A DNA stretch of 64,000 nt, from positions 1,366 through 65,365 of IMG/VR virus record IMGVR_UViG_3300017754_001906; one strand, written 5' to 3'. Below the pieces are notes generated by a model that ran no database searches, was not told the DNA's origin, and saw nothing but the letters and a program-made list of their open reading frames with translations. How positions within the stretch are numbered: the stretch's first letter is position 1; every line of letters begins with the position of its first letter. Both the position numbers and the translations under genes were made by a program. Of the stretch, positions 31,361 to 47,193 are shown one piece after another. This stretch comes from a virus (Duplodnaviria > Caudoviricetes).

Positions 31361-34300
31361 ATGAGCGATGTTTTTAGTTTGTTCGATGAAGTTGAAAATG
31401 AGCAAAGCAATAAAGGCGCGTCAACCCCAAGCATTGATCCGCGAGAGCAAGAAATTAGAGATCGCAACAAAATTTCCGCGTATGACGGAAATGAGTTGTT
31501 TAGTCTGTTTGACGAAGTCGCAGGAGACAGAGAGGTAGAGGCTCGTCGTCAGCAGCGAGCCTACGCCGAAAAAGCCTCGCTTACTGACCCGGATACTTAC
31601 ATAGCAACAACGAAGATGTTGCTAACCACTGGAGGTCGAGATCAGCAGCTCGAAGTCCTTCGCAAACTGACGCCTGAGCAGCGAGAAGCGGCGTTGAAGC
31701 TAGCCCCCGGCATAGCGCAGCAGTTAGGAGACGAACGCGGCGGGGCTGTTATGCGAACTATCGATGCTGTTAGTCGTGGTGCAGCTGGCGTTCTGCAACC
31801 TGTCATGGAGCTTACGGGTCTGGGTGGAACACCGGAGGAAATCGATTACCTTCGTAAGTTGAACTCGGCGTCTCAAGAGTTTGCTCCTGCGCGTCCAGAC
31901 GACCCTTGGTATCAGCAGGGAGCATTACAAGCTGCTGAAATGACTCCTGGGATGGTGATGATGGGGCAGGGCGGTGTTCTTGGCGGAGCTGTTGGTAAGG
32001 CTGCTGGCACAGCTCTCGGGAGGGCAGCTGCTGCTGGTGTTCCTGGAGCTAAGACAGCTTTCCAAGCCGCAGGCGCAATTGGAAAAGTTCCGGCTGCCGT
32101 TGGTCTTAAGGGCGCGACGACGAAGGGTGTGTTTGAGGGAATCGGGAGCGCTGCTGGTGTTACGGCTACATCATGGGCTCCTCAGTATGCTCAGGAGGTG
32201 GATGCGCTAAAAGAGCTTGGTATGCAGGATGGATTGGTTCTTAGGGCTCTTGCTGGCACAACCGCTGCCGCTGTGGGACTGATCGAGAGCATAGTCCCAA
32301 ATCCGTGGAAGGCTGGTAACGTTTCATTTAAGCAGGGTGCTATCAAAGCTGCTCGCCAATACTTATGGCAGGCTTCAAAAAACCTACCAGGGGAAATAAC
32401 CGAAGAAGGTCTTCAGGGTGTCGCAAGTGGTGTCGGCGAGCATGTGGCTCAATACCTCGACAAAGATGCCAAGAAGAAGACGATAGGAGAGGCTTTTAGC
32501 AAGGGATGGCAGCAAGCAAGTGACTCCGTGTTGCCGCTGGTGTTCATGCTTGGTGCGCCCGGTGTTGCAGGTGCCGCATCTGTGGCGATCAGGGCGAGGC
32601 GAGAGCAGCTGGAGCAATTGCGATCCAAGGGCTTTGTCTCTAAGGATGACGCGAAGAAGGCTGGGATCGAGGTCGGAACTCGCAAGGAAATAGCGGCTAA
32701 CGTTGATGCAGAAATTGAAGACCTGAAATCGCGGGAGTTAATTGCCAGCGTCAATGAGAGTGGCGCAGCCGCAGAGTCGCCGCAGGCGAGTCCTGGGCAA
32801 GCTGGAGTGTCCGTTGAGTCGCAGCAGGAAAATGTTGTTGCTCCTCCGCCACTTCCGCCACAGCCCCAAGGTGAAGTTCCTCCGCCTATTCCACCACAGC
32901 AGCAGGGTGCAGCTACTCCTCCGCCGATTCCGCAACCTCAGGAGCAGGCTCCTCCCCCAGTACCACCTCAACCACAAGAGCAGGTGCCGCCTTCATTGCC
33001 GCCTCAGCAGGCGGATCAGCCAGAGCCACAGTCTGCAAACTTTGATGCATACACCAATGCCGCATGGAAAGCAGCCGGGAAGGAAGGTCCAGTTTCCGAA
33101 AACTACAAGGCTAGCCAGAAGCAATTCGTTGGCAGCGCGGCAGACTACGGTATTCAGCAAGGGCGAGTAATTGCCTTTGATAGGAAGGATGGTTCCTCGG
33201 AGTTGCAATTCGCAGCAATAGCAGATGAGCTAAATCAGCGAGGTTATGAAGCTGGTCCAGTCAAAAAGTCCAGAAGCAATGGTATCGACAACATTGAGTT
33301 TTCCGTAACTAAAAAAGCGACAGTTGCGACTCCACCTGACACAACGTCAGTAGGCATGAAGTCGCCTGATCAACAGCCAGTCTCGTCGCCAGTCGCAGAA
33401 AAAGATGTTGCTGCTCCGCAGGCTGATGTCACGCCTCCAAGTAAGTTTGCAAGCTGGACTGTTCAGCAAGGCAGTGACGGGAAGCTGTATCGCGTTGATC
33501 CAAAAGCGAAAACAAAATACGAAAAGGCAAAGACTCGACAGCCAGTTGATCCAGCGGAAGTTGTCGTTGCCACACAAGATCAGTTTGGAAATCCGATAGA
33601 CAGAAAACTTGTCGGCGTTCGTCAAGAGTTTGCAAAGAATGCCAAGCCAGGAGCTGAATTTACGTGGTCGTCCTATCCAACGGCTAAGTTTAAGGTTCAG
33701 TCCAATGGCGATATTTTGGATGTCACCACTGGCAGGAGGATGGGGACGGTTCAGTCTACGTCCAACAACGCTGCCCTTAAGGCGAATAGCATTAAGTGGA
33801 CTTCACTGCCAGCTCCTGCTGCTCAACCTGCAACCGCTGCTCCGCAAGCCACTGAGCAGCCTGCCGTTATTGCGACACCAGTAGCCAAGCAACCGCAAGT
33901 TCCGCCTCAGCCGCAGGCTCAGGAAGTACGAAGTCGGGGCGAGAAGACAGCAACGGATATCTCAAAGGCTCTAGATGGGCTAGGTAAGGGTGCTGTTGAC
34001 GGGTTGTACACCAAGGTATGGAATGATGCGCAGTCTGGGCAGCTTCAAAAAATGGACAAGCCTCCATTGTTTGAGCAATTGGTTTTGAGGGGTTATGAAA
34101 AAGGTGTTGTTCGATCGCTTGAGGACGTTCGTTCTATCACAGAGGGGATGACGGGTGATTTTGAGGCTGACAAGGTGGTTGGGGTCAACAACCTAAACAA
34201 ACTGGCAAGCAAATACCAGGGACAGCAGCCGGTCGCAAAGCAACCGCAAGTCCAATCGCAATCAAAGTCCCAGGATCAAGCCGTTTCTGTGCCAACTGCG

Positions 34301-37300
34301 AAGCCCGCTCCGCAGGCACCGAGTCAGCAGGTTGCTCCTGTCGTGCCATCACAAGAAGTGTCCTCAGCTGTTGAAGAGCCATCGACGGCAAAGCCCAAGT
34401 CGGAACCAGCGAAGGTTGAGGGAGAAGAACAGAAGAAGCCTCTCAGCCAGCCGGTAGCGGATGAAGCAGGCACTAAGAAGCCAAAGTCGTCAGCGAAGCA
34501 AATGACTCCAAGAAGCTACTTGGAGAGCAAAACTGATCGTCAGCTAAAAACACTGGCAAAAGACTTAGGATTGAAAGCTGACAGCCGCGAGGGCGTTATT
34601 GAATCGCTTTTGCAGAACCCTGATGTTGTCGATTCGCTGAACAGCGCTCTGCAGAAAGCAAAGCCTTCAAAGCCTCGCAAGAAAAAGCCTGCTCCAGCTA
34701 AAGATGCTGCAAAAGGCAAAGAGCCTATACCAGTGAAGATGAGATCTTCGATGGGTACGACTAGAGAGTTGTTGCCGAGCGAGCTAACAGCGGCTGAGAA
34801 GAAGCAGAAAAGCATTCTCGAGAAAATGGGAGTCACTCTGCGATTGATTGAAGGAGGTAGCTTCAATACACCTGGGGCTTTCAATCCTGAGTCTATGACT
34901 GTTTGGCTCGATCGGTCTTACATAGAGCACATGGATTCCTTGTGGCAAAAGCAAGGTCGTCCTCCAGAGTCAATGACGTGGGGGTTGTTTTTGCATGAGA
35001 TGTTCCATGCGATAAAGAAGATTGACCCAGAGGCATGGAATGGTCTGCGTGATTGGATCAATGCGAATCCTAATGAAAAAGAACTACTGGACAAGGCAAC
35101 GAGCGATTACGTTCGTGATTCAATTAACGCGCTAAAAGAAAGACTCTCGAAAGATTCCAGGAACTCAGGAAAAACAGTCAATATCAAGGGAAGGCTTTCA
35201 ACAGCAGACCATGTCAGGTCGGCTATAAAAGCAGCGAAAGCCGCTGGTGTTGAAATCAGCGACGGCACAATAGCTGCTGCCGAATACACTATTAAAGTGC
35301 TTAGCAACGAGGACGTGAGGAACGAAGAAGGGCTCTCAAGGTATTTGGAAGACAAGGCTGGAGACTTCGATTTTTGGGACGATCTTGGAAACGACAATCC
35401 GAGCTTATTGGCAAAGATCGGTCGCTGGTTGCTCAGGGCGTTGCGACTTGCCGATTCAGATACTCTCGCTGGGCAGACGCGAGCTGCTATCGAGAAGGCG
35501 ATGAAGCGAAACAGTCTTGCAACTGGAGAAGATCTAGGGATTCGTGCTGCTGTAAGCAAGGGTGATTTCTCTGTAGGCGACATCAATGTCGATGAAGTCA
35601 GAGCGAAGGACAGGAAGGGCAACCGCGTATCAAAAGGTCTCGCTGTAAAATCCGTAAAAGGCACAAAGGTTTACGAGGAGACAGACGATCTGTCATTCGA
35701 TTACGTCAAGAAAAACGCTCCAGATGTGTTTATTAAGAACGCCAACACGATTGCTGATTACCCATTAGTGCGTGGAAAGAGGGTGTTTGAAAAGGCTCGC
35801 ACAGTAGAACAGGCACAAGAGATATACGATGTGTTCGTCAGGGAGGTAGCCGACAACCTAAACTACCTATATTCAGAGTACGACAGTGAATTTAGAATGC
35901 CATCTACTCTCTGGTATGACGGCGCAAACGCGATAGCTAACAGGCTGGCTGATGATTACAAAGTATCTCCAGAGCAGGTGGCTGGAATTATTGCTGCCAT
36001 GTCTCCGCAAAAAGACTGGTATCAGAATGTAAGACTTGCCGAACTGCTGCTTGAAGCGTTCAGGGTCAACCCGGTGATGACTCCGGAAATGATTGCCCAT
36101 CAGAGGGACGTAGTTAGGGTTGATGGTCTCAAAGGATACAGCAGGAAGGTTAGACTTGCTGAGAGTGCGCTCGCTAAAGCAAACCTCGAGTATAAGGGAA
36201 CCACGCTAGAAAATTATCGCAAGATTGAATCGGTGCTTTCTTCTGGGGCATTTCTGCAAGAAGGTGGTAAGACCTCTTCCGAGTTGCAGAAGCTTGCCTC
36301 ACAAGCAGGTGTTGGTTTCGCAAAAGCGACTGGACAGTTAAAGTCAAAAATGAGCCCAGACGAAAAGGCGTCTCTGCAAAAAATAGCGAATTGGGCTATC
36401 ACGATTTTTAAGGAAGGTGCAGCAGCATCTCCTGGAGAGTCGCTTTCTGACAGTGATCTGAAGAAATTGGTTAGCGAGCATCGCAGGGAAGTTAAATCCG
36501 CAATTGATGACAGTGCAGCGTCGTTAGTGGCTGCTAAAGCCAAGCTGGCTAAGTCTACAACAAAAGCCGATGCCGTAGTGAGCAAACTCGAAAGCCATTT
36601 AGGCAAAACTCTTGACAGTGTTCCAGAAGAAATCCAGTCCTTCATGGTAAGGTTGTATCATGAGGTAAACACGACCAAGGACTACAACGTAATTGCTCCC
36701 GACGGACGTGCTGTAGGCGTAGCTAAAAATGATAACGGAGAGAACGCGAGACTAGCGTGGGGATCCTATGGAGAGATTGGGAAGGGCGTTTCGATTAGGA
36801 ACAATGGAAGCCCAAGAAATATTACGAGGCGACTAGGGCAGCAGCACAAGATCCGAAACTTTTACAACAACATCATTGATCCGATGAGCGAGGATGGTGA
36901 TGTGACGATGGATACCCATGCGATTGCAGCAGCACTGCTGATGCCTTTGTCGGGGAAGTCGACCCAGGTCACTCAGAACTTCGGTGGCAGCGGGGCTAAA
37001 AACGCGGGAGCTTTTGGAATCAAGGGGCTATACTATGCGTTTGCTGAAGCATATAATGTATCCGCAAAAGAAAACGGATTGCTGCCAAGGCAGATGCAGA
37101 GCGCGACTTGGGATCCAGTTCGCGGCTTGTTCACGGACGTGTTTAAGAGCGTCAAGAAGAACGTAACAAAAGTCAACGATATTTGGGAAAGTTACGCAGA
37201 TGGCAAAATATCAGTCGAAGAAGCAAGAGAACAAGTCTTTGAAGCAGCCGGTGGAATCGACACTCCCACCTGGGCCAGACCCGCTCGAGAAGATGTTGGA

Positions 37301-40300
37301 GGATCTGTACGGAAGAAACGTGACAGAGGACGAGTACGAGGAGATGGACAGGCTTCTGTCGGGGCTACCGATGGAGGAGGAGATGGAGGACGAAGATACT
37401 CTCCAGGACGAAGCGGACGAGACGCAACCGTTGCCGTCCGGGGAAGTCTCGGCGTTGATGAAAGAGTTTGGAGTCGATCGACAGACAGCCGAAAAGTGGG
37501 CGGATATGATCTAACTGCTAGGTATGTAGCTGACGTTGCAGAATGGGCGGAATCTGGCGTCAGTGCTCCAGCCTTTATTGAGCTAAAAGCATCGGATAAA
37601 TCGGCGAGGCAATTTTCCGAAGCGATTACTTCGGCACGCGAAAGCCAAGGAAAGCTAGGGGCGTCAGTTTATGTTTATCCCGACCAAGACTACCGGGATA
37701 TGCGGCTGTTTCTGACGGAGGACGGCAAGGCTGGGTTTGCGTTGAAGGCGACCGACGACCCCAGTATTACGGATATCGTATCGGTGTTTAATACGGCTGG
37801 TAGCCTTCATCGCGGCGTAAGTTACGCGATGATACGACTGGCGGTCGAAGAGGGCGGTAATACGCTTGATGCGTTCGACACATTCCTGCCGGTGGTTTAT
37901 TCAGCAAACGGATTCCGAGCGATTTCCCGCATTAAGTGGGACGACGACTTCGCTATGGAAGGCTGGGACAAGAAAGCTTATTCGGATTTCAATAATGGTG
38001 AGCCGGACATCGTCTTCATGGCGTATGATCCGCAGCAAACAGAGATCTATCGCGTTGACAGCAGAGAAGGTGACGTATTTGATACGTACGACGAAGCCGT
38101 CGCATCACAACGATTGGTGGCGAAGAAGAATTACCTGGAGTTACAAGAAAGGAAAAAGCAGAATGCCAAAGCAAAGCAAGGTGGAAAACGATATTCGCCT
38201 GGACGACGACCCGAATCGACCGGAGACGGAAGAGGACGAAAAGGCATTGGGAAGACGGAGGCTCTTGCAGGCTCGCCATCGGTCCCAGGCATTAACGGGC
38301 CGGATCCCGAGGTCGTTGCGGTTGCCGAGCGATACGCCAAAGAGTATGGGATCGATCTCAAGCGACAAGCCGAATACGTCCAAGTAGACGAGGATCGGGC
38401 AAGAAGGATAGCCGATGCGTATGCGCAGATGCCGCATGATCCGCAGGATCCTAAGGTCAAAGAGGCGTACCAAGAGCTTATTAAGCAAACCACGGATCAG
38501 TACAGGGCGTTAGAGGACGCTGGATATAAGTTCTGGTTTATGGATCTAGGGATTCCTAGCAACCTCGAGTACGCATCGAGCCCGTATAATGCTTTGCGAG
38601 ATTTGCGAAGTAATAAGCAGATGGGTGTATTCCCGACAACAGACGGCTTCGGGACAAGCGACCTTGATGTAAACGACAATCCTCTGCTTGCGGATACAGG
38701 AATTTTGTGGGCGTCAGGAGGGCTAGATGGGGAAATGAAGCCCGTCTTGGCTAACGATCTGTTTCGGGCTGTTCATGACGCTTTTGGACACAGCCTAGAA
38801 GGTGCAGGGTTTAGAGCGAGGGGTGAAGAAAATGCTTGGCAGGCGCATGTGCGTTTGTTTTACGGGTCAGCAGTAGGTGCTATCACTAGCGAGACCCGTG
38901 GGCAGAACTCTTGGTTGAATTACGGACCTCACGGAGAAGCGAACCGTAATGCAAAAGTCGAAGACACGATTTTTGCGGACCAGAAAACCGGCTTGATGCC
39001 CGAGTGGACGTGGACCGAGGGTCGTGCTGCAGACATGGAAGATGTTGGCGATGCCGACATGAATGGTCCTGATCTGGAGTCTGGACTGCAATATGCAGTT
39101 GCAAGACCGCAGTTGGCTAAGAAGCTCAACTCTGGGAAGAAGGTTAAGCTGTACCGTGCGATGCTCCTAATTGACGGAAAGCTTTATCCTCCCATGTCGT
39201 CTCGAAGCAAGAGCGACGAAGGCAGGCTAGCTATGCGTCCAGGAGAACCTATTGGTCAGTGGATGCAATCGGAGGAGAGACCGGAACTCGTTCCCAAGAC
39301 AGGAAAGAACGCAGGGAAGTTTCCTCTGCAAAAGCCAAAAGGTGTTACGTGGGCTGCTTATGCTCCGTACTTCCATGCGTCTCCTATGCCTCTTAATGAT
39401 CAGTTTACGGCATCATGGCTCAACGATGGTATTAGACGACCACGCATGGTGATCGTCGAGGTTGAAGTCCCAGAAAGCGAAATGACGAGCGGCTATCAAG
39501 CCGAGGGATCAAGCAAGAAGGTGGGTTCGAATAAGTGGAGGGCTGGCGTTGTTGCTTCCAAGCTTCCAGGCGGCAGGGAGGTTGTTCTCTCCAGGTACTT
39601 GCGTATCAAGCGAATAGTCCCAGATGCTGAAGTGGCGAAGAAGATCGCCGACATTGTTAATCCGGCGAGGCTTTCTGTACCAGAGAACGTTATTACGCCA
39701 CAGCTACGTGCAGAGCTTGAGAAAAATGGAGTTCGCATTTCTGCAAAGGGTACGAAGGGCGAAGGAATCCGCTATTCTCCCGGTCGCCGCGTAGACGAAA
39801 AGTATCTTGCTGCGGTCAAGGACGGTGACAAGAAGCTTGCGCAGAGATTGGTGAACAAGGCTGCTCAGAAAGCAGGAGAGTTTGCTGGCGGTGTTTCTCC
39901 GGTGGTTTATCACGGAAGTCCGCATGCTGCGTTTTACAAGTTCCAGATTCCTAGCAAGGGTTTCAATAGCACGGTATTTGGATCTTACGAGGTAAGCAGG
40001 AATGCTGCGTTCTTCACTCCAGATAAGACCGCTGCCTCCAATTACCAGACCCAAGGTGGTCGCACAAGCGGCAGCACTCGCAAGTTTAGGATCTTTGGCG
40101 AGATGCTGGACTGGAGAAACGGCATATCAGACGCTCAGTTCAATACGCTTGTTGATAACGGCGTGAACTCGAGATGGCTAGGTCAGAAGGGTGCTTCTTG
40201 GGAGTTGTTCGATAAAGAGCAGGATCCTGAAGGTACTCTTGTAAAAGCCATCAAGAAGATGGGGTACGATGGGGTGATTATCCGCGACACGGATGGAGAA

Positions 40301-43300
40301 AATGATTTTGATGCTTACGTTGCGTTCTCTCCTTCTCAAATCAAATCTTCAGATCCCGTCACTTACGATGACGCCGGAAACGTCATTCCGTTGAGCAAGC
40401 GGTTTGACGACCTCCAGAGCGATGTGCGTTATTCCCCAGGTCGCAAGAAAGATGCCATTCTTGCAGCGTTGTACAAGCAGCTGGAAGAGAAAGGTGCGAT
40501 CAAGCCGAAGGCGGCAGGAGATAGAACAACTAGCATCAAGAACCGCAAGACCGACGAATTGCGAGCAGAGTCTGGGTTCCCTCCGAGAGTGCGTCCATCC
40601 AGCGAGTCTTTTGAAGAATGGGAGGAGCGAGCTCGACAACAGTACCCAACTGCAAAGGATCGCCTGAAGCTCATAGCAGAGGCGGAACGCTATCCAGAGA
40701 AAATTGGCAAGATAGAGAGCGCAGCGATTGGGCAGCACATTACATATCTCGACAATCAGCGAATCGCTGGGAAGAATGTCGTAGATGAACTGCGAAGAAC
40801 AATCAAGGTTGCCAATACTGTTGGAACCGAAGCGGGTCGTGCATTGGTTAGTCGCAAGGTTGAGAGATATGGCGACTTCTCTTTGGCTGGTCTTATCAGC
40901 GAACACATGCGAGTTGCTGGCACCGATCCCACCGACAGTCAGATTCAGGATTACGCTGAACTTGCCGATCGCATTAAGCAATTGGAAGCAGACAAGGTGG
41001 AGCTAGCGGAAAAGCTTGCTAAGGAAACCATAGCGAGGATAAAGGCGGAAGCAGAAGCGAAGCCAGCAATTGAGCCGACAAAGCCGAAAAAAGGCACCAA
41101 GCGAGCTGCATTGCTTAAGAAAGTTGCTGACAGCTTTGCAGCGTTTCAGAACGCATGGGGACAAGAAAGATTCTCTGTAGGCAGAACTCCAGCATTGGAA
41201 GCCATTGCTGACTTTGGGTTTGGAACTGAAACACTTCCGGATCCTGCAACGGTGTCTCGCAGTGAATGGTTGCGAGCGTACATGCCTCTAGTAATGCAGG
41301 GGGTTCCTGACGCAGACATCAGCGAAAAGGACATGAATGTGTTGGCGTCTGCTTTTGGCGACGACAATCCATTCGCTCCAGATAGCAAGCTGATGAAGAT
41401 GCTTGGCAAATGGGCTATCCAGTCTGATTTGCATGAGGCAAACTGGGGGGATGGAGTGCGTGTTCTTTTCGAAGATAAGTCTCCAGCAACTCGCATGATG
41501 TTAGAGCAGATTTCTAAAGAGTCTGGGGTGAGTGCAAATCGAGACGACTTCTATGATCCAGCGGATTACAAGTCGCTTGCTAAGGCTTTTGTGAAGTATC
41601 TTCCGAAGCACCTCGCAAAGAAACCGGAAGGTTATTCGTATGGCTATTCGGACACGAAGCGATTGCTCGAGACATCTAAGGCGCTGCTAGATCCGCTCGA
41701 GTACGCCATCAACGTATGGGAGGGGTCACAGCAAGCCGCATCTGTCGATGTAAATCCTGACATTCGATACTCTCCAGGAAGACAAGATGACGCCGCACAA
41801 ACTGCTGCAGCTAATCTGGTCAAGTTGCTTCGCGAGATGGGCGTTAGTTCTACGCTTGAGTTTGAGCTTCAGATCAAGGCGAACTTGAAGAACGCTTCAC
41901 CAGAGCAGATGCAGGCTTTGATGGATGCGTGGAACGCAAGTAGTGAAAAAACGGATGTGGTGTCTCCTTTAGGCGATGATCCTGACAACGCTGACATCGG
42001 CGCTAGAGCTAAGGAGTTGATGAGACTGGCTATCGAAGCTGGATATGGTGCTAATCCTGAAACGTGGATGGAGGTTGTTGATGTAGTTCATGAACAACTT
42101 TCGCTCGATGTTCCAGGTATCGATAAATACGACACCATGCAAGCCATGAGTGACTATGGCGTCTGGCGGAAGCTTTCTGGAGAAGAAGTCGCAGTCAAGA
42201 CTCGGGCTATTCGCGGCAAGGCAAGGCAATCATTAAAAATAGAGGACACGCTAAAGGCGATTGCACAAAGCGAAGCATGGCTGAAGGATGGCGTAAGCCC
42301 GGAGGAGGTAGCACGTCGTTTGAGAGAGAAGAATCTTCTTCCGAAAGCAACTGGTAGGGAGCAGGCGACTCCCGACAGCATTGAGCGAGAGCTAATTGCG
42401 GAGTTCAACAAGCTGAAGAAAACATTGCCAGTTCCTGCTGAATCTCGAGAGGGGCAGTTGAAGTCGGCTTTGAGTACGGCAAAGACCTCCGCGAAGAATA
42501 GGCTAGAGATGCTCGACAACGACATCTCGGCATTAGAGGATGCGGTCAAAAACAGAAAAGAGCTCGTCAAGCCAGTTGCTGAGAAAACTCGTCTGGAGCC
42601 GGATGCAGAGCTTGAAGACCTTCGCAGCCAGCTAGACGCAAAGCGGCGGCAGCGGGATGAATTGAAAGCCGCGTACAGCGAGATATTCCCGTCTGCCAAA
42701 GCAAAGCGAGGGCGAAAGCCACTTACTGATGAACAGCGGCTAGAGGCATCTATGAAGCTGCTTGCCCGTCAGATTGACGCAGTGAAGGCGGACATACAGG
42801 CGTTAAACAGCGGGTCATGGGCGCCTGCGGCAAAGAACGCTGAGCTTACATCTGCAAGGAAGGAGCAGCTGAAGTCGGATCTGGCATCGCTACGAGAAAC
42901 CCAGAAGAGGGCGAGAAAAGCAAGTCCTTTGTATCAGGCTCTTCAGGAGACGAAATACTGGGAAAGGTATCGGAAGACCCAGGAGAAGCGACTGGCGTTT
43001 TGGGAGAATCGCCGCGACGAAGCAAAAGCCGGAAGACTCCCTGTGCCACTGCAGAAGCGTACTATTGTTGAGAAGGACATCCTCGAGAAAAACCTGGAGA
43101 TCGAGGAAAAGAAATATGAGGCAATGATCGCGATCGAGAAGGCTACTCGAGCAAACTGGAACGCTGGGCAGTGGATAGGGCAAGGCTTGCTTGAGGCTAC
43201 GTCACTGATACCTAAGACGTTGATGCTTGGGCTCGAGATGTCATTTGTACTGCGACAAGGATTTTTCTACACCTACTCGCAGCCGATGAAGGCTTTCCGT

Positions 43301-44854
43301 GCGCTAACCGAAGCCATGCCAGCAGTGTTTAGTCAGCGACTTGCACTGGCATCTATGGAGAGCATCGAGAATAGACCAAACGCCGATGAGTACCTTGATG
43401 CGAAGGTGGACTTTACAAAAGCAACCGGTCCGCAAGCAAAACTAGAGGAGTTGTACCAGTCGGCTGTTATTCAATGGCTCGAGAGAACAGAGACAAAGCT
43501 TTTGCTGCCTTTAAGAGCGTGGGCAAAGGTTTATCAGATGTTTGAGCGTGGCAACAGAACGTTCTCGAACATCATGAAAGCCGACATGTACGATATCCAA
43601 AAGCGGGATACACTGGCTGCGCGTGAGTTCTTCGGATTGAGTACTGAATGGACAAATAATGACATCAAGGAAACCGGACGAATAACGAACATCTTCAGCG
43701 GAAGAGGCACTGGAATAAAAGGCGGAAGCCCGTGGCTTGATTGGCTGTTCCTAGCTAGACGCTGGACGTGGTCGCGAATCCAGGCAGACTTCATTGTTCC
43801 TTTCCAGCTCGTTACTCCAGAATGGATCGGTCAGTGGAACGCGGATCGCGGAATGCGAGTGGCGTTGGCTAAGTTGTACATTCAATCTTTGGTTGGTCAT
43901 GCAGCGAAAATGGCTGCAGCTTACTTTGCGTATTCCGTTTTGGCGGGAGACGACGAAGAGAAGAAACCAACAATGGAGTTTGATTTGCGATCTAGCGATG
44001 CATTGGCACTCAAGGTCGGCGAGACGAGATTCAAAGACGAAGGCGGTATGATGCCAGCCATCGTTTTGGCTGCAAGGATTGCAACCGGCAAGATCAAAAC
44101 TGGCAAAGGGGAGATCAAGTCGATTTATGGAGAGGACGTTCAGCACGGAGGAAAAACCGCTGCCGACTTCTTGATCAATTACGGTCGGTACAAGCTAGGC
44201 ACAGCGCCATCTGCGATACTCGAATGGATTTCTGGCAGAGATGCGGTTGGTACGGTTATAGAGGACAAGGACGATCCGACAGCAATATACAGAAATATAG
44301 CTTCCAGCCGATTAACTCCGCTGACGTACCGAGAAATATATGCGGCAGAAAGCGAGCTTGGTCTTAAGAGAGGCACGCTGGCTGCACTCGAAGCGTTTTT
44401 TGGTGTTTCCGTTTCAACGCATGGTGACCGTACCAAGTACAAGAAGGGTAGCGAGGCAGATCGCAAGAAGCAATTCGACAACGATCTGAAGGCTATGCAA
44501 TGGAATAGTCCAGATCCCGCCTACAGCGACTTGCTTTCCAGCGAACAGATGGAGGGGGTTAGCAAGAGAAGAGAGGCAAAACGGCAGGGGCTTATCTTCG
44601 CAGCTGGAGCGAATCCCCAGAGGAAGGATTACAAAAACGCTGAGAATTATGACAAAGCCGTTGCGGAGAGAGATAAGGCGAGACAGGAAATGGCTGAATC
44701 TGGCATAACGCTTCCTGAAGCTCGATCGCTCCTCATTGAGTATTACAAGGATAACTATGGATCAGCCTACGAATTGAAGGGTGGATCCTACGTTATGAAG
44801 GGCTCAGCAGTTGCTAGATTGCGAGAAATCAAGCGGCAATTTAGTGGTAAATAG
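31361..44854 (+). CDS. giant polyvalent internal virion protein (4497 aa; zincin MPTase-like, HhH-glycosylase-like, GNAT-like and ADP-ribosyltransferase-like domains)
   Basis: HEMFH at 34994; WYDGA...AMSPQKDW...KIRNFY...VTMDTHA; GKAGFALK...GGNTLDAFD; VYHGS...FFT...GYDGVII...DPVTYDDAGNVIPLSKRF; RYSPGR linkers. Confidence 0.8.
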   Translation: MSDVFSLFDEVENEQSNKGASTPSIDPREQEIRDRNKISAYDGNELFSLFDEVAGDREVEARRQQRAYAEKASLTDPDTYIATTKMLLTTGGRDQQLEVLRKLTPEQREAALKLAPGIAQQLGDERGGAVMRTIDAVSRGAAGVLQPVMELTGLGGTPEEIDYLRKLNSASQEFAPARPDDPWYQQGALQAAEMTPGMVMMGQGGVLGGAVGKAAGTALGRAAAAGVPGAKTAFQAAGAIGKVPAAVGLKGATTKGVFEGIGSAAGVTATSWAPQYAQEVDALKELGMQDGLVLRALAGTTAAAVGLIESIVPNPWKAGNVSFKQGAIKAARQYLWQASKNLPGEITEEGLQGVASGVGEHVAQYLDKDAKKKTIGEAFSKGWQQASDSVLPLVFMLGAPGVAGAASVAIRARREQLEQLRSKGFVSKDDAKKAGIEVGTRKEIAANVDAEIEDLKSRELIASVNESGAAAESPQASPGQAGVSVESQQENVVAPPPLPPQPQGEVPPPIPPQQQGAATPPPIPQPQEQAPPPVPPQPQEQVPPSLPPQQADQPEPQSANFDAYTNAAWKAAGKEGPVSENYKASQKQFVGSAADYGIQQGRVIAFDRKDGSSELQFAAIADELNQRGYEAGPVKKSRSNGIDNIEFSVTKKATVATPPDTTSVGMKSPDQQPVSSPVAEKDVAAPQADVTPPSKFASWTVQQGSDGKLYRVDPKAKTKYEKAKTRQPVDPAEVVVATQDQFGNPIDRKLVGVRQEFAKNAKPGAEFTWSSYPTAKFKVQSNGDILDVTTGRRMGTVQSTSNNAALKANSIKWTSLPAPAAQPATAAPQATEQPAVIATPVAKQPQVPPQPQAQEVRSRGEKTATDISKALDGLGKGAVDGLYTKVWNDAQSGQLQKMDKPPLFEQLVLRGYEKGVVRSLEDVRSITEGMTGDFEADKVVGVNNLNKLASKYQGQQPVAKQPQVQSQSKSQDQAVSVPTAKPAPQAPSQQVAPVVPSQEVSSAVEEPSTAKPKSEPAKVEGEEQKKPLSQPVADEAGTKKPKSSAKQMTPRSYLESKTDRQLKTLAKDLGLKADSREGVIESLLQNPDVVDSLNSALQKAKPSKPRKKKPAPAKDAAKGKEPIPVKMRSSMGTTRELLPSELTAAEKKQKSILEKMGVTLRLIEGGSFNTPGAFNPESMTVWLDRSYIEHMDSLWQKQGRPPESMTWGLFLHEMFHAIKKIDPEAWNGLRDWINANPNEKELLDKATSDYVRDSINALKERLSKDSRNSGKTVNIKGRLSTADHVRSAIKAAKAAGVEISDGTIAAAEYTIKVLSNEDVRNEEGLSRYLEDKAGDFDFWDDLGNDNPSLLAKIGRWLLRALRLADSDTLAGQTRAAIEKAMKRNSLATGEDLGIRAAVSKGDFSVGDINVDEVRAKDRKGNRVSKGLAVKSVKGTKVYEETDDLSFDYVKKNAPDVFIKNANTIADYPLVRGKRVFEKARTVEQAQEIYDVFVREVADNLNYLYSEYDSEFRMPSTLWYDGANAIANRLADDYKVSPEQVAGIIAAMSPQKDWYQNVRLAELLLEAFRVNPVMTPEMIAHQRDVVRVDGLKGYSRKVRLAESALAKANLEYKGTTLENYRKIESVLSSGAFLQEGGKTSSELQKLASQAGVGFAKATGQLKSKMSPDEKASLQKIANWAITIFKEGAAASPGESLSDSDLKKLVSEHRREVKSAIDDSAASLVAAKAKLAKSTTKADAVVSKLESHLGKTLDSVPEEIQSFMVRLYHEVNTTKDYNVIAPDGRAVGVAKNDNGENARLAWGSYGEIGKGVSIRNNGSPRNITRRLGQQHKIRNFYNNIIDPMSEDGDVTMDTHAIAAALLMPLSGKSTQVTQNFGGSGAKNAGAFGIKGLYYAFAEAYNVSAKENGLLPRQMQSATWDPVRGLFTDVFKSVKKNVTKVNDIWESYADGKISVEEAREQVFEAAGGIDTPTWARPAREDVGGSVRKKRDRGRVRGDGQASVGATDGGGDGGRRYSPGRSGRDATVAVRGSLGVDERVWSRSTDSRKVGGYDLTARYVADVAEWAESGVSAPAFIELKASDKSARQFSEAITSARESQGKLGASVYVYPDQDYRDMRLFLTEDGKAGFALKATDDPSITDIVSVFNTAGSLHRGVSYAMIRLAVEEGGNTLDAFDTFLPVVYSANGFRAISRIKWDDDFAMEGWDKKAYSDFNNGEPDIVFMAYDPQQTEIYRVDSREGDVFDTYDEAVASQRLVAKKNYLELQERKKQNAKAKQGGKRYSPGRRPESTGDGRGRKGIGKTEALAGSPSVPGINGPDPEVVAVAERYAKEYGIDLKRQAEYVQVDEDRARRIADAYAQMPHDPQDPKVKEAYQELIKQTTDQYRALEDAGYKFWFMDLGIPSNLEYASSPYNALRDLRSNKQMGVFPTTDGFGTSDLDVNDNPLLADTGILWASGGLDGEMKPVLANDLFRAVHDAFGHSLEGAGFRARGEENAWQAHVRLFYGSAVGAITSETRGQNSWLNYGPHGEANRNAKVEDTIFADQKTGLMPEWTWTEGRAADMEDVGDADMNGPDLESGLQYAVARPQLAKKLNSGKKVKLYRAMLLIDGKLYPPMSSRSKSDEGRLAMRPGEPIGQWMQSEERPELVPKTGKNAGKFPLQKPKGVTWAAYAPYFHASPMPLNDQFTASWLNDGIRRPRMVIVEVEVPESEMTSGYQAEGSSKKVGSNKWRAGVVASKLPGGREVVLSRYLRIKRIVPDAEVAKKIADIVNPARLSVPENVITPQLRAELEKNGVRISAKGTKGEGIRYSPGRRVDEKYLAAVKDGDKKLAQRLVNKAAQKAGEFAGGVSPVVYHGSPHAAFYKFQIPSKGFNSTVFGSYEVSRNAAFFTPDKTAASNYQTQGGRTSGSTRKFRIFGEMLDWRNGISDAQFNTLVDNGVNSRWLGQKGASWELFDKEQDPEGTLVKAIKKMGYDGVIIRDTDGENDFDAYVAFSPSQIKSSDPVTYDDAGNVIPLSKRFDDLQSDVRYSPGRKKDAILAALYKQLEEKGAIKPKAAGDRTTSIKNRKTDELRAESGFPPRVRPSSESFEEWEERARQQYPTAKDRLKLIAEAERYPEKIGKIESAAIGQHITYLDNQRIAGKNVVDELRRTIKVANTVGTEAGRALVSRKVERYGDFSLAGLISEHMRVAGTDPTDSQIQDYAELADRIKQLEADKVELAEKLAKETIARIKAEAEAKPAIEPTKPKKGTKRAALLKKVADSFAAFQNAWGQERFSVGRTPALEAIADFGFGTETLPDPATVSRSEWLRAYMPLVMQGVPDADISEKDMNVLASAFGDDNPFAPDSKLMKMLGKWAIQSDLHEANWGDGVRVLFEDKSPATRMMLEQISKESGVSANRDDFYDPADYKSLAKAFVKYLPKHLAKKPEGYSYGYSDTKRLLETSKALLDPLEYAINVWEGSQQAASVDVNPDIRYSPGRQDDAAQTAAANLVKLLREMGVSSTLEFELQIKANLKNASPEQMQALMDAWNASSEKTDVVSPLGDDPDNADIGARAKELMRLAIEAGYGANPETWMEVVDVVHEQLSLDVPGIDKYDTMQAMSDYGVWRKLSGEEVAVKTRAIRGKARQSLKIEDTLKAIAQSEAWLKDGVSPEEVARRLREKNLLPKATGREQATPDSIERELIAEFNKLKKTLPVPAESREGQLKSALSTAKTSAKNRLEMLDNDISALEDAVKNRKELVKPVAEKTRLEPDAELEDLRSQLDAKRRQRDELKAAYSEIFPSAKAKRGRKPLTDEQRLEASMKLLARQIDAVKADIQALNSGSWAPAAKNAELTSARKEQLKSDLASLRETQKRARKASPLYQALQETKYWERYRKTQEKRLAFWENRRDEAKAGRLPVPLQKRTIVEKDILEKNLEIEEKKYEAMIAIEKATRANWNAGQWIGQGLLEATSLIPKTLMLGLEMSFVLRQGFFYTYSQPMKAFRALTEAMPAVFSQRLALASMESIENRPNADEYLDAKVDFTKATGPQAKLEELYQSAVIQWLERTETKLLLPLRAWAKVYQMFERGNRTFSNIMKADMYDIQKRDTLAAREFFGLSTEWTNNDIKETGRITNIFSGRGTGIKGGSPWLDWLFLARRWTWSRIQADFIVPFQLVTPEWIGQWNADRGMRVALAKLYIQSLVGHAAKMAAAYFAYSVLAGDDEEKKPTMEFDLRSSDALALKVGETRFKDEGGMMPAIVLAARIATGKIKTGKGEIKSIYGEDVQHGGKTAADFLINYGRYKLGTAPSAILEWISGRDAVGTVIEDKDDPTAIYRNIASSRLTPLTYREIYAAESELGLKRGTLAALEAFFGVSVSTHGDRTKYKKGSEADRKKQFDNDLKAMQWNSPDPAYSDLLSSEQMEGVSKRREAKRQGLIFAAGANPQRKDYKNAENYDKAVAERDKARQEMAESGITLPEARSLLIEYYKDNYGSAYELKGGSYVMKGSAVARLREIKRQFSGK

Positions 44855-45362: not shown

Positions 45363-46049
45363 ATGATACGAACCGCTGTAATGTCTCTTTTCATGGTTTT
45401 GGCGTCTTTGGCTGTGGTGATCCCGCAGGAGACGCTTACGGACAAGGCGTTCGTGCAATCCCCCTCGGTGGTCAAGCGAGACCGCCCAATTAGGATTAAC
45501 CACCCCGAGGGAGTGAAGATCCAGGCGATCTACGCCAGGGTGGATCAAGGGACCGTAGTGTGGTCATATCTTTCAGACGACCACTTTGAGCGATCTGGAG
45601 CTTTCACGGTTTTTGTTGCTCCTCCGGGCGATTACTTCATCACCACAGGCGAATCCACCATCATCAAGATTGTGGATGACGGCAGTGTGCCTCCAGAGCC
45701 GCCTAAGCCAAAGCCGGAGCCAAAGCCCGATCCGAACGTGAATCCGAAGCCGAAGCTGAAGGTTAACTGGGCTGTGTGGGTTTACGAGCAAGCTGATGCG
45801 GTTAATCAGGTACCACAAACAAACACGCGACTGTCATTGGAGACTCGTCGCTATCTCGAATCTCGAGGCATCAAGATGTCGGCTTACGACGACGACCAGG
45901 ATTCGGCTAAAGCAAAGCCATTCCTGGATGTTGCGTCCGGACTGCCTGCGTTGTTCCTGATCCAGGACTCCAATAGGTATTCGGTTTACAAGGCGCCTGC
46001 ATCGCTAGACGAATTGAAAGCTATCGTAAAGGAGGCGACAGGTGAGTGA
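45363..46049 (+). CDS. exported protein with signal peptide, Pro-rich linker and thioredoxin-like C-terminal domain (no CxxC)
   Basis: MIRTAVMSLFMVLASLA signal-like segment; PPEPPKPKPEPKPDP; GLPALFL cis-Pro-like motif. Confidence 0.6.
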   Translation: MIRTAVMSLFMVLASLAVVIPQETLTDKAFVQSPSVVKRDRPIRINHPEGVKIQAIYARVDQGTVVWSYLSDDHFERSGAFTVFVAPPGDYFITTGESTIIKIVDDGSVPPEPPKPKPEPKPDPNVNPKPKLKVNWAVWVYEQADAVNQVPQTNTRLSLETRRYLESRGIKMSAYDDDQDSAKAKPFLDVASGLPALFLIQDSNRYSVYKAPASLDELKAIVKEATGE

Positions 46050-47193
46050 TTGCGAAGTCATCATCGAAGACGGCAAGGAGGCTGTTATTACACCGGATGG
46101 AGTTAAGGTTTCTCTCGGCTTAATTCCAGATCCAAATCCCCCTCGGCTCACGACCATGGGAAGATTGCTCGGATCCCTGCCAAGCAGATCAGAGCTTATC
46201 AGCTTGATCGAGTCGCAGGAGTATCAGAACAGTGTAGGAGGCATGGCTCACTATGATTCCTCCTGGACGAAGTTTCAGAACGGCTGGGGGAAGTGTGCGT
46301 CCAGTGCGGCGACATATGCTATTGAGAAAGCGAGATATCGCAGCGGACAGCCCAGGATTGTCCTGAGCGATGATTATCTCTACTCGCTCGTTAACGGCGG
46401 CGCCGATCAGGGTGGGACGCTAGGCGACAACCTTCGAGCCATCACCGAGCGAGGGATCGCTACAAGGAATACCGTCGCGGAGGGCAATATCTACCGAAAG
46501 ATGTACAGCACCGACAAGGCTGACAAGGAGGCTCTTCGCTTTCGTGCTCACGAAGGTTTCGGAACCCCGTCCGAGCAGGAAGTGGTGGTTGCCTTGGCGA
46601 CTGGCAGTCCCGTTGTGATCGCCATTCATGTTGGTCGCAACTGGCGTAAGTTCGATAGTAATGGCGTCCTGATTGGCGACCGAGGTCCAGGAAATCATTC
46701 CGAGCACCTCGATCACGTTCGATACAACCGCGAGAAGGGACGGTTCGAGTTTCGAGAGCACTCGAGCCATGGAACAGGGCAGGGAGAAGGCGGGTTCTTC
46801 TGGGTGACTTGGGATCAGCATCTCGCCACCGTACACCCCTCTCACACGTTCTACGCTGTGCCAAATGCTATCCAGGATCCGTTTGGGCTATCTCCGTTTG
46901 GTCAGGGGCAAGAAGAGGGCGGGGACAACAAGCCTAGCCCTGTGGCTACAGCAACGCTTGTAGTGGTTTCTAGCGAGTTCTGCTCTTGGTGCAAGCAGTG
47001 GAACGCAAAGGATAGACCGGTGCTGCAAAAGGCTGGCGTCAACATCTTTGCGGGTGAAGTGCCTGGAAACGGCGTGCCGAGATTCCGGCTTGAAGTTGGT
47101 GGTAGATCAACTGAAAAGGTCGGCTATTGGGAAGCTGACGCTATTCTTCGAGAAATCGCCAGTCTGAGAATGGACGCTGCTTATCAGATGTAG
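46042..47193 (+). CDS. papain-like (C1) cysteine peptidase with C-terminal thioredoxin CxxC domain
   Basis: QNGWGKCA (Q...C spacing as in papain), LSDDYLY, GNHS, HSSHGTGQGEGGF; C-terminal SEFCSWCKQW...GVPRF...GY. Confidence 0.8.
   Translation: MSDCEVIIEDGKEAVITPDGVKVSLGLIPDPNPPRLTTMGRLLGSLPSRSELISLIESQEYQNSVGGMAHYDSSWTKFQNGWGKCASSAATYAIEKARYRSGQPRIVLSDDYLYSLVNGGADQGGTLGDNLRAITERGIATRNTVAEGNIYRKMYSTDKADKEALRFRAHEGFGTPSEQEVVVALATGSPVVIAIHVGRNWRKFDSNGVLIGDRGPGNHSEHLDHVRYNREKGRFEFREHSSHGTGQGEGGFFWVTWDQHLATVHPSHTFYAVPNAIQDPFGLSPFGQGQEEGGDNKPSPVATATLVVVSSEFCSWCKQWNAKDRPVLQKAGVNIFAGEVPGNGVPRFRLEVGGRSTEKVGYWEADAILREIASLRMDAAYQM

Follow-up and report, generated by a model that had tools for sequence, protein, structure and literature searches.

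RYSPGR peptides at the module joints of a giant phage polyvalent protein: a putative junction signal linked to an in-chain HExxH domain

The stretch of DNA analysed here (the window) comprises 64,000 nucleotides (nt), positions 1,366 to 65,365 of the IMG/VR record IMGVR_UViG_3300017754_001906 (Caudoviricetes), and is nearly the whole of this 65,365-bp virus record; searches of other frames and open reading frames (ORFs) cover this window. On its plus strand lies a gene (31361..44854) for a giant protein of 4,497 amino acids (aa), designated P0001, in which the peptide RYSPGR recurs at the joints between modules. The gene is situated 3′ of the terminase, the portal and other virion genes. The terminase was recognized clearly enough to be named and the portal by a weak match to the SU10 type, both on the same strand as P0001, and unnamed virion-type genes, also on the plus strand, occupy the space between the portal and the P0001 ORF. 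In P0001 itself, Pfam names only DUF7178 (92 bits) and ART-PolyVal (46 bits, with a cut-off of 31.2), and a PHROGs search found nothing beyond these names. With an ART-PolyVal domain, DUF7178, a domain carrying an HExxH motif and at least five further breakpoint-delimited modules joined in one chain, P0001 fits the description of a phage polyvalent protein and, as is characteristic of these proteins, is encoded among virion and packaging genes. This position, together with the detection in virions of the phi24B polyvalent protein gp47 (LPD and metallopeptidase domains; bioRxiv 10.64898/2026.04.10.717836), suggests that P0001 travels in the capsid and enters the host along with the DNA.

Exact RYSPGR is present five times in P0001, at aa 2012, 2277, 2804, 3023 and 3469 (nt 37394, 38189, 39770, 40427 and 41765), and two variants, QYAVAR and RFSVGR, begin at nt 39089 and 41168. 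According to composition, 1.4e-4 copies of RYSPGR would be expected, and the probability of finding at least five is about 5e-22; no hexamer exceeded 2 copies in 200 shuffles. Likewise, a looser family, [RQE]-x-[SA]-[PVIA]-[GSATR]-R, has 8 matches in P0001 compared with 0.8 in shuffles. RYSPGR is confined to the P0001 ORF, and even YSPGR is encoded in no other frame of the window. The five underlying DNA segments have pairwise identities of just 12-16 of 18 nucleotides with synonymous differences, and the peptide, not a DNA repeat, is therefore under selection. The same low sharing rules out a DNA-level repeat or recombination seam as the nature of the copies. An internal ribosome-binding site or restart was also rejected, as two of the copies have GGT where the others have GGA, and a start codon does not follow consistently. 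The original prediction had listed these five copies with their codons, both variants and a HEMFH motif at nt 34994 (aa 1212), and had proposed conservation of the peptide rather than of the DNA; our data agree with it exactly in the copies and confirm the remaining points. A search of a literature library for the peptide strings (RYSPGR and DIR[YF]S types) retrieved no relevant paper.

P0001 was compared by BLAST with 253 homologues collected in two database searches, one of which counted roughly 8,000. The termini of the local matches accumulate at all seven sites or next to them, with, for instance, 110 matches beginning within aa 2280-2289 and 208 ending within aa 2550-2569. The seven sites are therefore module boundaries, as the original prediction had claimed. 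They split aa 2012-3469 into six modules of 199-300 aa, flanked by 2,011 aa on the N-terminal and 1,029 aa on the C-terminal side. All features described below are on the plus strand. In the N-terminal flank, the HExxH domain (aa 1121-1388; 34721..35524, with HEMFH at 34994-35008) is zincin-like according to the topology of its model. Directly after it stands RAAVSK (aa 1395; 35543..35560), a K-ending variant of the junction family that falls outside the looser pattern; a homology breakpoint lies near, at aa 1400, and relatives carry RASVGR, RAAVGK or RAAPAR at this position. DUF7178 follows, with its best stretch by Pfam at aa 1493-1574 (35837..36082). Closer to the N-terminus, EFAPAR (aa 173-178; 31877..31894) could be a further variant, assigned with low confidence, and its context ASQ-EF[AS]PAR-PDDPWY is kept in five proteins of the clade described below (P0001 and four relatives). 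The first 53 residues of P0001 contain the peptide FSLFDEV twice (aa 5-11 and 47-53; window 31373-31393 and 31499-31519), which may be a repeat with a role in targeting or packaging at the N-terminus.

The cargo array starts at RYSPGR copy 1 (37394..37411), like copies 2 (38189..38206) and 5 (41765..41782) an exact match at a breakpoint. Module 1 (259 aa; 37412..38188) lies between copies 1 and 2, and is followed after copy 2 by module 2 (294 aa; aa 2283-2576; 38207..39088), strongly conserved in the comparison of homologues. The variant QYAVAR (aa 2577; 39089..39106) separates it from module 3 (221 aa; 39107..39769). Copy 3 (39770..39787), an exact match, stands directly before the first helix of the module holding the ART-PolyVal ADP-ribosyltransferase (ART) domain (39788..40426; Pfam and model), which ends with the conserved tail DPVTYDDAGNVIPLSKRF. 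Copy 4, also exact (40427..40444), module 5 (241 aa; 40445..41167), the variant RFSVGR (aa 3270; 41168..41185) and module 6 (193 aa; 41186..41764) complete the array up to copy 5. Modules 3, 5 and 6 are delimited by breakpoints and have no assigned function. The 1,023 aa after the last motif (41783..44851) are conserved in the clade, contain coiled-coil and a hydrophobic region, and presumably form a structural or ejection part.

The claim that the copies follow recognizable domains held for the ART domain, which is above the Pfam cut-off. The GNAT-like label (module 1) and the glycosylase-like label were not confirmed by Pfam on P0001, and both derive entirely from the names and Pfam matches of relatives. 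Module 2, with the motif HDAFGH..GFRARGEENAWQAH and no Pfam family, is called 'glycosylase', 'lysin' or 'crystallin motif protein' in public records. Its identity reaches 65-82% over ~280 aa among giant proteins that are otherwise unrelated, and when aa 2277-3474 (1,198 aa) were used as a query, 2,523 cluster representatives were found at E<=1e-30, with module 2 matched in nearly all matches listed. Cyanophages are among its carriers. A recurring 'LEGA', considered as a junction peptide, belongs to module 2.

The clade of P0001 was sampled by 13 further proteins (P0002-P0012, P0014 and P0122) together with the five IMG/VR loci L001-L005, whose HExxH domains are 44-73% identical to that of P0001. 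All of them have R-Y-S-P-[GS]-R at the joints, despite differing module order and identity, and 48 clade sites give the consensus [IV]-R-Y-S-P-[GS]-R-[QKR]. The looser pattern occurs 5-10 times per clade protein, compared with ~1 in shuffles. At the module 2/3 joint the relatives carry R[YF]A[VI]AR, while orthologous positions of RFSVGR are occupied by RSSVGR, RAAVGR or RPAVGR in the alignment; as both variants of P0001 match sites conserved in relatives, they are not accidental.

In distant relatives, different motifs occupy the same joints, among them those that close module 2 (..WTWTEGR..) and ART-type domains (..QIKS..GN.GTFDP.NPDI). Each protein uses its own motif throughout; RFSVAPR, RYSL, FSRQE, SRRQ, SYARP and KFQK were observed. 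The survey of homologues' domain junctions, put forward with the original prediction as a check, thus found the motif or a lineage-specific version of it at the same joints. Two broad classes can be distinguished: x-x-S, mostly [DN]-I-R-[YF]-S, and [IV]-L-x-Q-[SGAE]. An independent sample of 48 IMG/VR loci (L006-L053) was retrieved by the ART domain, with ART cores 25-35% identical to that of P0001. Almost everywhere in this sample, the tail ..DPVTYDDAGNVIPLSxRF.....DI is followed by R[YFW]S, and the same ORFs repeat the motif behind domains of other kinds, with up to seven occurrences. Furthermore, the motif standing 6-8 residues 5′ of the ART domain shares a lineage-specific extension with the motif after it, as in the upstream/downstream pairs RYSVSPE/RYSVSPE, NYSIGK/NYSIGM, RFSLEE/RFSLED, NYHPG/RYHPG, RFQPV/RFQPD and RMSKAE/RWSKAD. 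Across 20 IMG/VR lineages, the within-protein motif match has a mean BLOSUM score of 15.6, compared with 6.4 +/- 0.8 after permutation, and 0 of 5,000 permutations reach this value. Since non-homologous neighbours share one lineage-specific signal, a common co-evolving reader is called for. A tblastn search of the ART tail against GenBank phages returned only two uncultured records, and no cultured model phage by that route. The tail itself (its DPVTYDD to RF stretch is at window 40364-40417, aa 3002-3019 in P0001) is nearly invariant among the 48 loci despite the low identity of the cores.

In regard to the HExxH domain, the AlphaFold2 model of aa 1114-1420, with a predicted local distance difference test score (pLDDT) of 75.7, consists of a helix, three strands, the HExxH helix, a helical insert and a helix with N-[DE]-EGLSRYLE. 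Its elements H31-42, E46-51, E59-62, E67-71 and H91-108, the last carrying HEMFH, follow the element order of zincins. The invariant N-x-EGLSRYLE is found on a helix ~107 aa after HExxH, and its Glu is, in the model, a candidate third zinc ligand. The RAAVSK junction falls in the tail of the model with pLDDT<50. Atlas neighbours of the domain, LPD23, LPD1 and MuF_C, are leads only.

Among the ART tails compared, the class of the junction motif goes with the family of this domain. HExxH segments of the homologues form few BLAST clusters, which according to hhalign are alike just around HExxH. All x-x-S tails of ART domains (35/35) occur in proteins with an HExxH domain of cluster 0 or 2, where cluster 0 includes the MTWGLFLHEMFHAIK type of P0001, and all L-x-Q tails (12/12) occur in proteins with one of cluster 1 (ADLSTFLHExGHFFLE), giving agreement in 47 of 47 cases and 0 mismatches. 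On the ART tree, the tail class switches at least 11 times, and the 4 contrasts that lie on well-supported branches all agree (p=0.125); the resolution of the module-2 tree was too poor for independent contrasts. As a separate observation, in homologues of the L-x-Q class such as P0072, P0074 and P0115 a junction leads straight into the cluster 1 zincin, which starts with G-P-R-G-T-F-[DN]-P-x-x-L-x-I. This start is similar to the tail G-N-R-G-T-F-D-P-x-x-P-N-I by which ART domains end ahead of junctions, and the zincin of P0001 has PGAFNPESMTVW there. Judging by the sequences, such likeness could be substrate mimicry or common descent.

A model was also built for the ART domain (window 39740-40492; 26 sequences; pLDDT 71), which Pfam places at aa 2847-2997 (PF18760) above its gathering cut-off. 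The conserved tail packs against the domain at pLDDT 85-89; order is lost inside the downstream RYSPGR, where pLDDT is below 50 from the third residue onward (residues 232-240). A Foldseek search with this model gave weak matches, the best being chain B of the cyanophage A4 pre-ejectosome (9k3a; E 6e-4, template modelling score ~0.3), followed by tankyrase and PARP catalytic domains (E 5e-3 and above) as weak ART-fold matches. The best match suggests that ART-like domains are also present in solved ejection complexes, and the available text of the A4 paper (PMC12002296) does not mention ADP-ribosylation.

A chain organized in this way could be seen as having three parts: an N-terminal part of ~2,000 aa with the zincin-like HExxH domain and DUF7178, six cargo modules of 190-300 aa, and a C-terminal part of ~1,000 aa. 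RYSPGR would then be the clade's version of an inter-module junction signal, belonging to a looser family R-x-[SA]-[PV]-[GSA]-R, placed at all joints of the array as well as directly behind the zincin-like domain. According to this proposal, a phage protease recognizes the peptide in an exposed linker and cuts there, and the cut frees the cargo enzymes, either while still in the capsid or once injected, in the manner of viral polyproteins and MARTX toxins; the zincin-like domain of the same chain is the best candidate for the protease. The scissile bond could lie before Arg, because it is usually the residue following the cut that zincins recognize, and the motif classes differ mainly in having Arg or Leu. 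As the motif stands at joints whatever the neighbouring domains, changes in concert within a protein from lineage to lineage and is linked to the HExxH class, the cleavage reading with a zincin partner is favoured.

The certainty of these steps is not the same. We are fairly sure that RYSPGR is a junction recognition signal, and that the observation is real and generalizes. From recognition we infer cleavage, and the peptide is probably a cleavage site as far as sequence comparison can indicate. The in-chain zincin-like domain is named as the leading candidate protease tentatively, with slightly more doubt than trust. The full account, a clade junction signal cut by a phage protease, best candidate the in-chain zincin, to free cargo enzymes, is in our view evenly poised between right and wrong. 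It is also possible, although we lean slightly against it, that a general 'junction code' exists in polyvalent proteins, where each lineage has its own peptide (of DIR[YF]S or I-L-x-Q type; here RYSPGR) cut by a matching family of in-chain zincin.

Several observations weigh against cleavage by the in-chain domain. The zincin assignment relies on HExxH, the topology of the model and the conserved downstream Glu, and the fold is unconfirmed: the HEMFH domain has no Pfam match at E<=1, no PHROGs name and no match to a PDB profile, and its Foldseek and VIA-align wide lists were dominated by the helical insert and returned no zincins. With only 4 well-supported contrasts, shared ancestry could explain part of the class association. 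Several complete ORFs have a single DIRFS after the ART tail with HExxH absent within 20 kb, and a crude comparison of motif copy number between IMG/VR ORFs with and without HExxH gave no significant result (Fisher p=0.4). The upstream RYSPGR adjoins the first ART helix and is itself modelled with fair confidence, and may be less accessible. Furthermore, N4 vRNAP, ArdC and TraC1 bear metallopeptidases and are nevertheless delivered uncut, according to the available text of PMC5512222, and the capsid model of A4 shows its ejection proteins as long, unbroken chains, with no processing described in the accessible part of that report (PMC12002296). A literature search on virion proteomics found nothing on the processing of such proteins. 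The original prediction had read the motif as a proteolytic release site or a chaperone/ejection signal; what stands of it is a selected recognition signal, with zincin cleavage favoured, while the unconfirmed fold and the motif-bearing relatives devoid of HExxH count against it.

Such relatives, together with the continuous chains modelled for large podophage ejection proteins such as those of A4, would suit an uncut docking motif, by which every module offers one and the same peptide to a phage partner (for example the portal, a factor for packaging or scaffolding, or a chaperone for unfolding or ejection) and the chain stays whole; concerted lineage-specific change needs a partner, which does not have to be a protease. 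However, docking does not explain why the signal stands precisely at each joint, that behind the zincin-like domain included, it leaves the link to the HExxH family unaccounted for, and two standalone homologues of module 2 have no clear junction motif. We therefore regard docking as unlikely. The retention of DIRFS by relatives lacking HExxH could also mean that the site is cut by another protease, either of the host or an unrecognized one of the phage, for instance a prohead protease of the kind with which T4 and phiKZ-like phages cleave the proteins they package, at sites marked by short motifs; the unconfirmed zincin fold points the same way. Yet no prohead protease was recognized in the window by Pfam and PHROGs, and the motif is in no other ORF of the window, so capsid and scaffold proteins are not substrates. 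A papain-like peptidase fused to thioredoxin is encoded at 46042-47193, and the nearest relative has it too (81% identity); it was rejected as the junction protease and is considered an accessory gene, since it is missing from two RYSPGR-carrying clade relatives that are 100% complete according to CheckV. As the class of the motif moreover follows the in-chain HExxH family, a protease from elsewhere seems quite improbable.

The modules were clearly exchanged at these points, as they would be if the peptide were a passive linker or cap that persists through the shuffling of cassettes, an exchange seam without any reader protein. Such a seam is nonetheless very unlikely, as 12-16 shared nucleotides of 18 with synonymous differences are too little for homologous recombination, and a lineage-specific extension shared by non-homologous modules needs selection by a common reader. 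Finally, S-P-x-R resembles a site for Ser phosphorylation, and the Arg could be ADP-ribosylated by the ART of the same chain. This idea comes from resemblance of sequence, and equivalent joints elsewhere (L-x-Q, RAAVGR, KFQK) are without Ser or without Arg, which makes a modification site barely credible. Recognition followed by cleavage continues to be the reading we prefer.

Polyvalent proteins are among the largest and commonest accessory proteins of phages and conjugative elements. The candidate sites offer a rule for delimiting effector modules in thousands of giant proteins from metagenomes and, if cleavage is true, they define matched pairs of protease and site. Should the junction code be true as well, effector cassettes could swap freely and still be released, a phage counterpart of the processing of MARTX toxins and viral polyproteins.

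Viral polyproteins are cut by their own proteases, such as picornavirus 3C or coronavirus Mpro, which cuts after L-Q and before S/A/G. They likewise have a short motif at each domain joint, which in them co-evolves with a protease of the chain and in P0001 may do so with a candidate one, and the L-x-Q-[SGA] class of the relatives looks similar, as far as can be judged from the sequence. On the other hand, their enzymes are chymotrypsin-like cysteine proteases and their product is the replicase, whereas P0001 has a metallopeptidase candidate and accessory cargo, and belongs to a DNA phage. In MARTX toxins, a cysteine protease domain cuts after Leu in the linkers between arrayed effector domains. 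As in the scheme proposed for P0001, swappable effector modules lie between conserved delivery parts and are freed at short linker sites after delivery, but the protease is of another class, there is no homology, and secretion takes the place of delivery from a phage capsid. Prohead proteases also use short consensus sites, L/I-x-E for gp21 of T4 and S/A/G-x-E in phiKZ and SPN3US, and in these phages head and ejection proteins are cut inside the capsid. The present case differs in that no such protease is recognized, the motif is absent from ORFs in capsid or scaffold positions, and the consensus is unrelated. The giant ejection proteins of podophages (gp47 of phi24B; those of cyanophage A4, PMC12002296) are likewise very large, and in these short-tailed phages they are packaged in the capsid, as is predicted for P0001; they differ in that processing is not reported for gp47 or A4 in the available texts, and their homology to P0001 is, where examined, limited. 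The closest parallel is found in the polyvalent proteins of Iyer, Burroughs, Anand, de Souza and Aravind (2017; PMC5512222), which, like P0001, are giant chains of unrelated effector-type domains (here ART-PolyVal, DUF7178 and HExxH) encoded among virion genes, although the HExxH domain of P0001 matches no Pfam model. Autoproteolytic release of their domains by a zincin metallopeptidase was predicted there, with no cleavage or junction motif named in the available text; to this prediction, which has stood since 2017 without known sites, our study adds exact candidate sites, their lineage-specific versions and the tracking of these versions with the HExxH family of the same chain.

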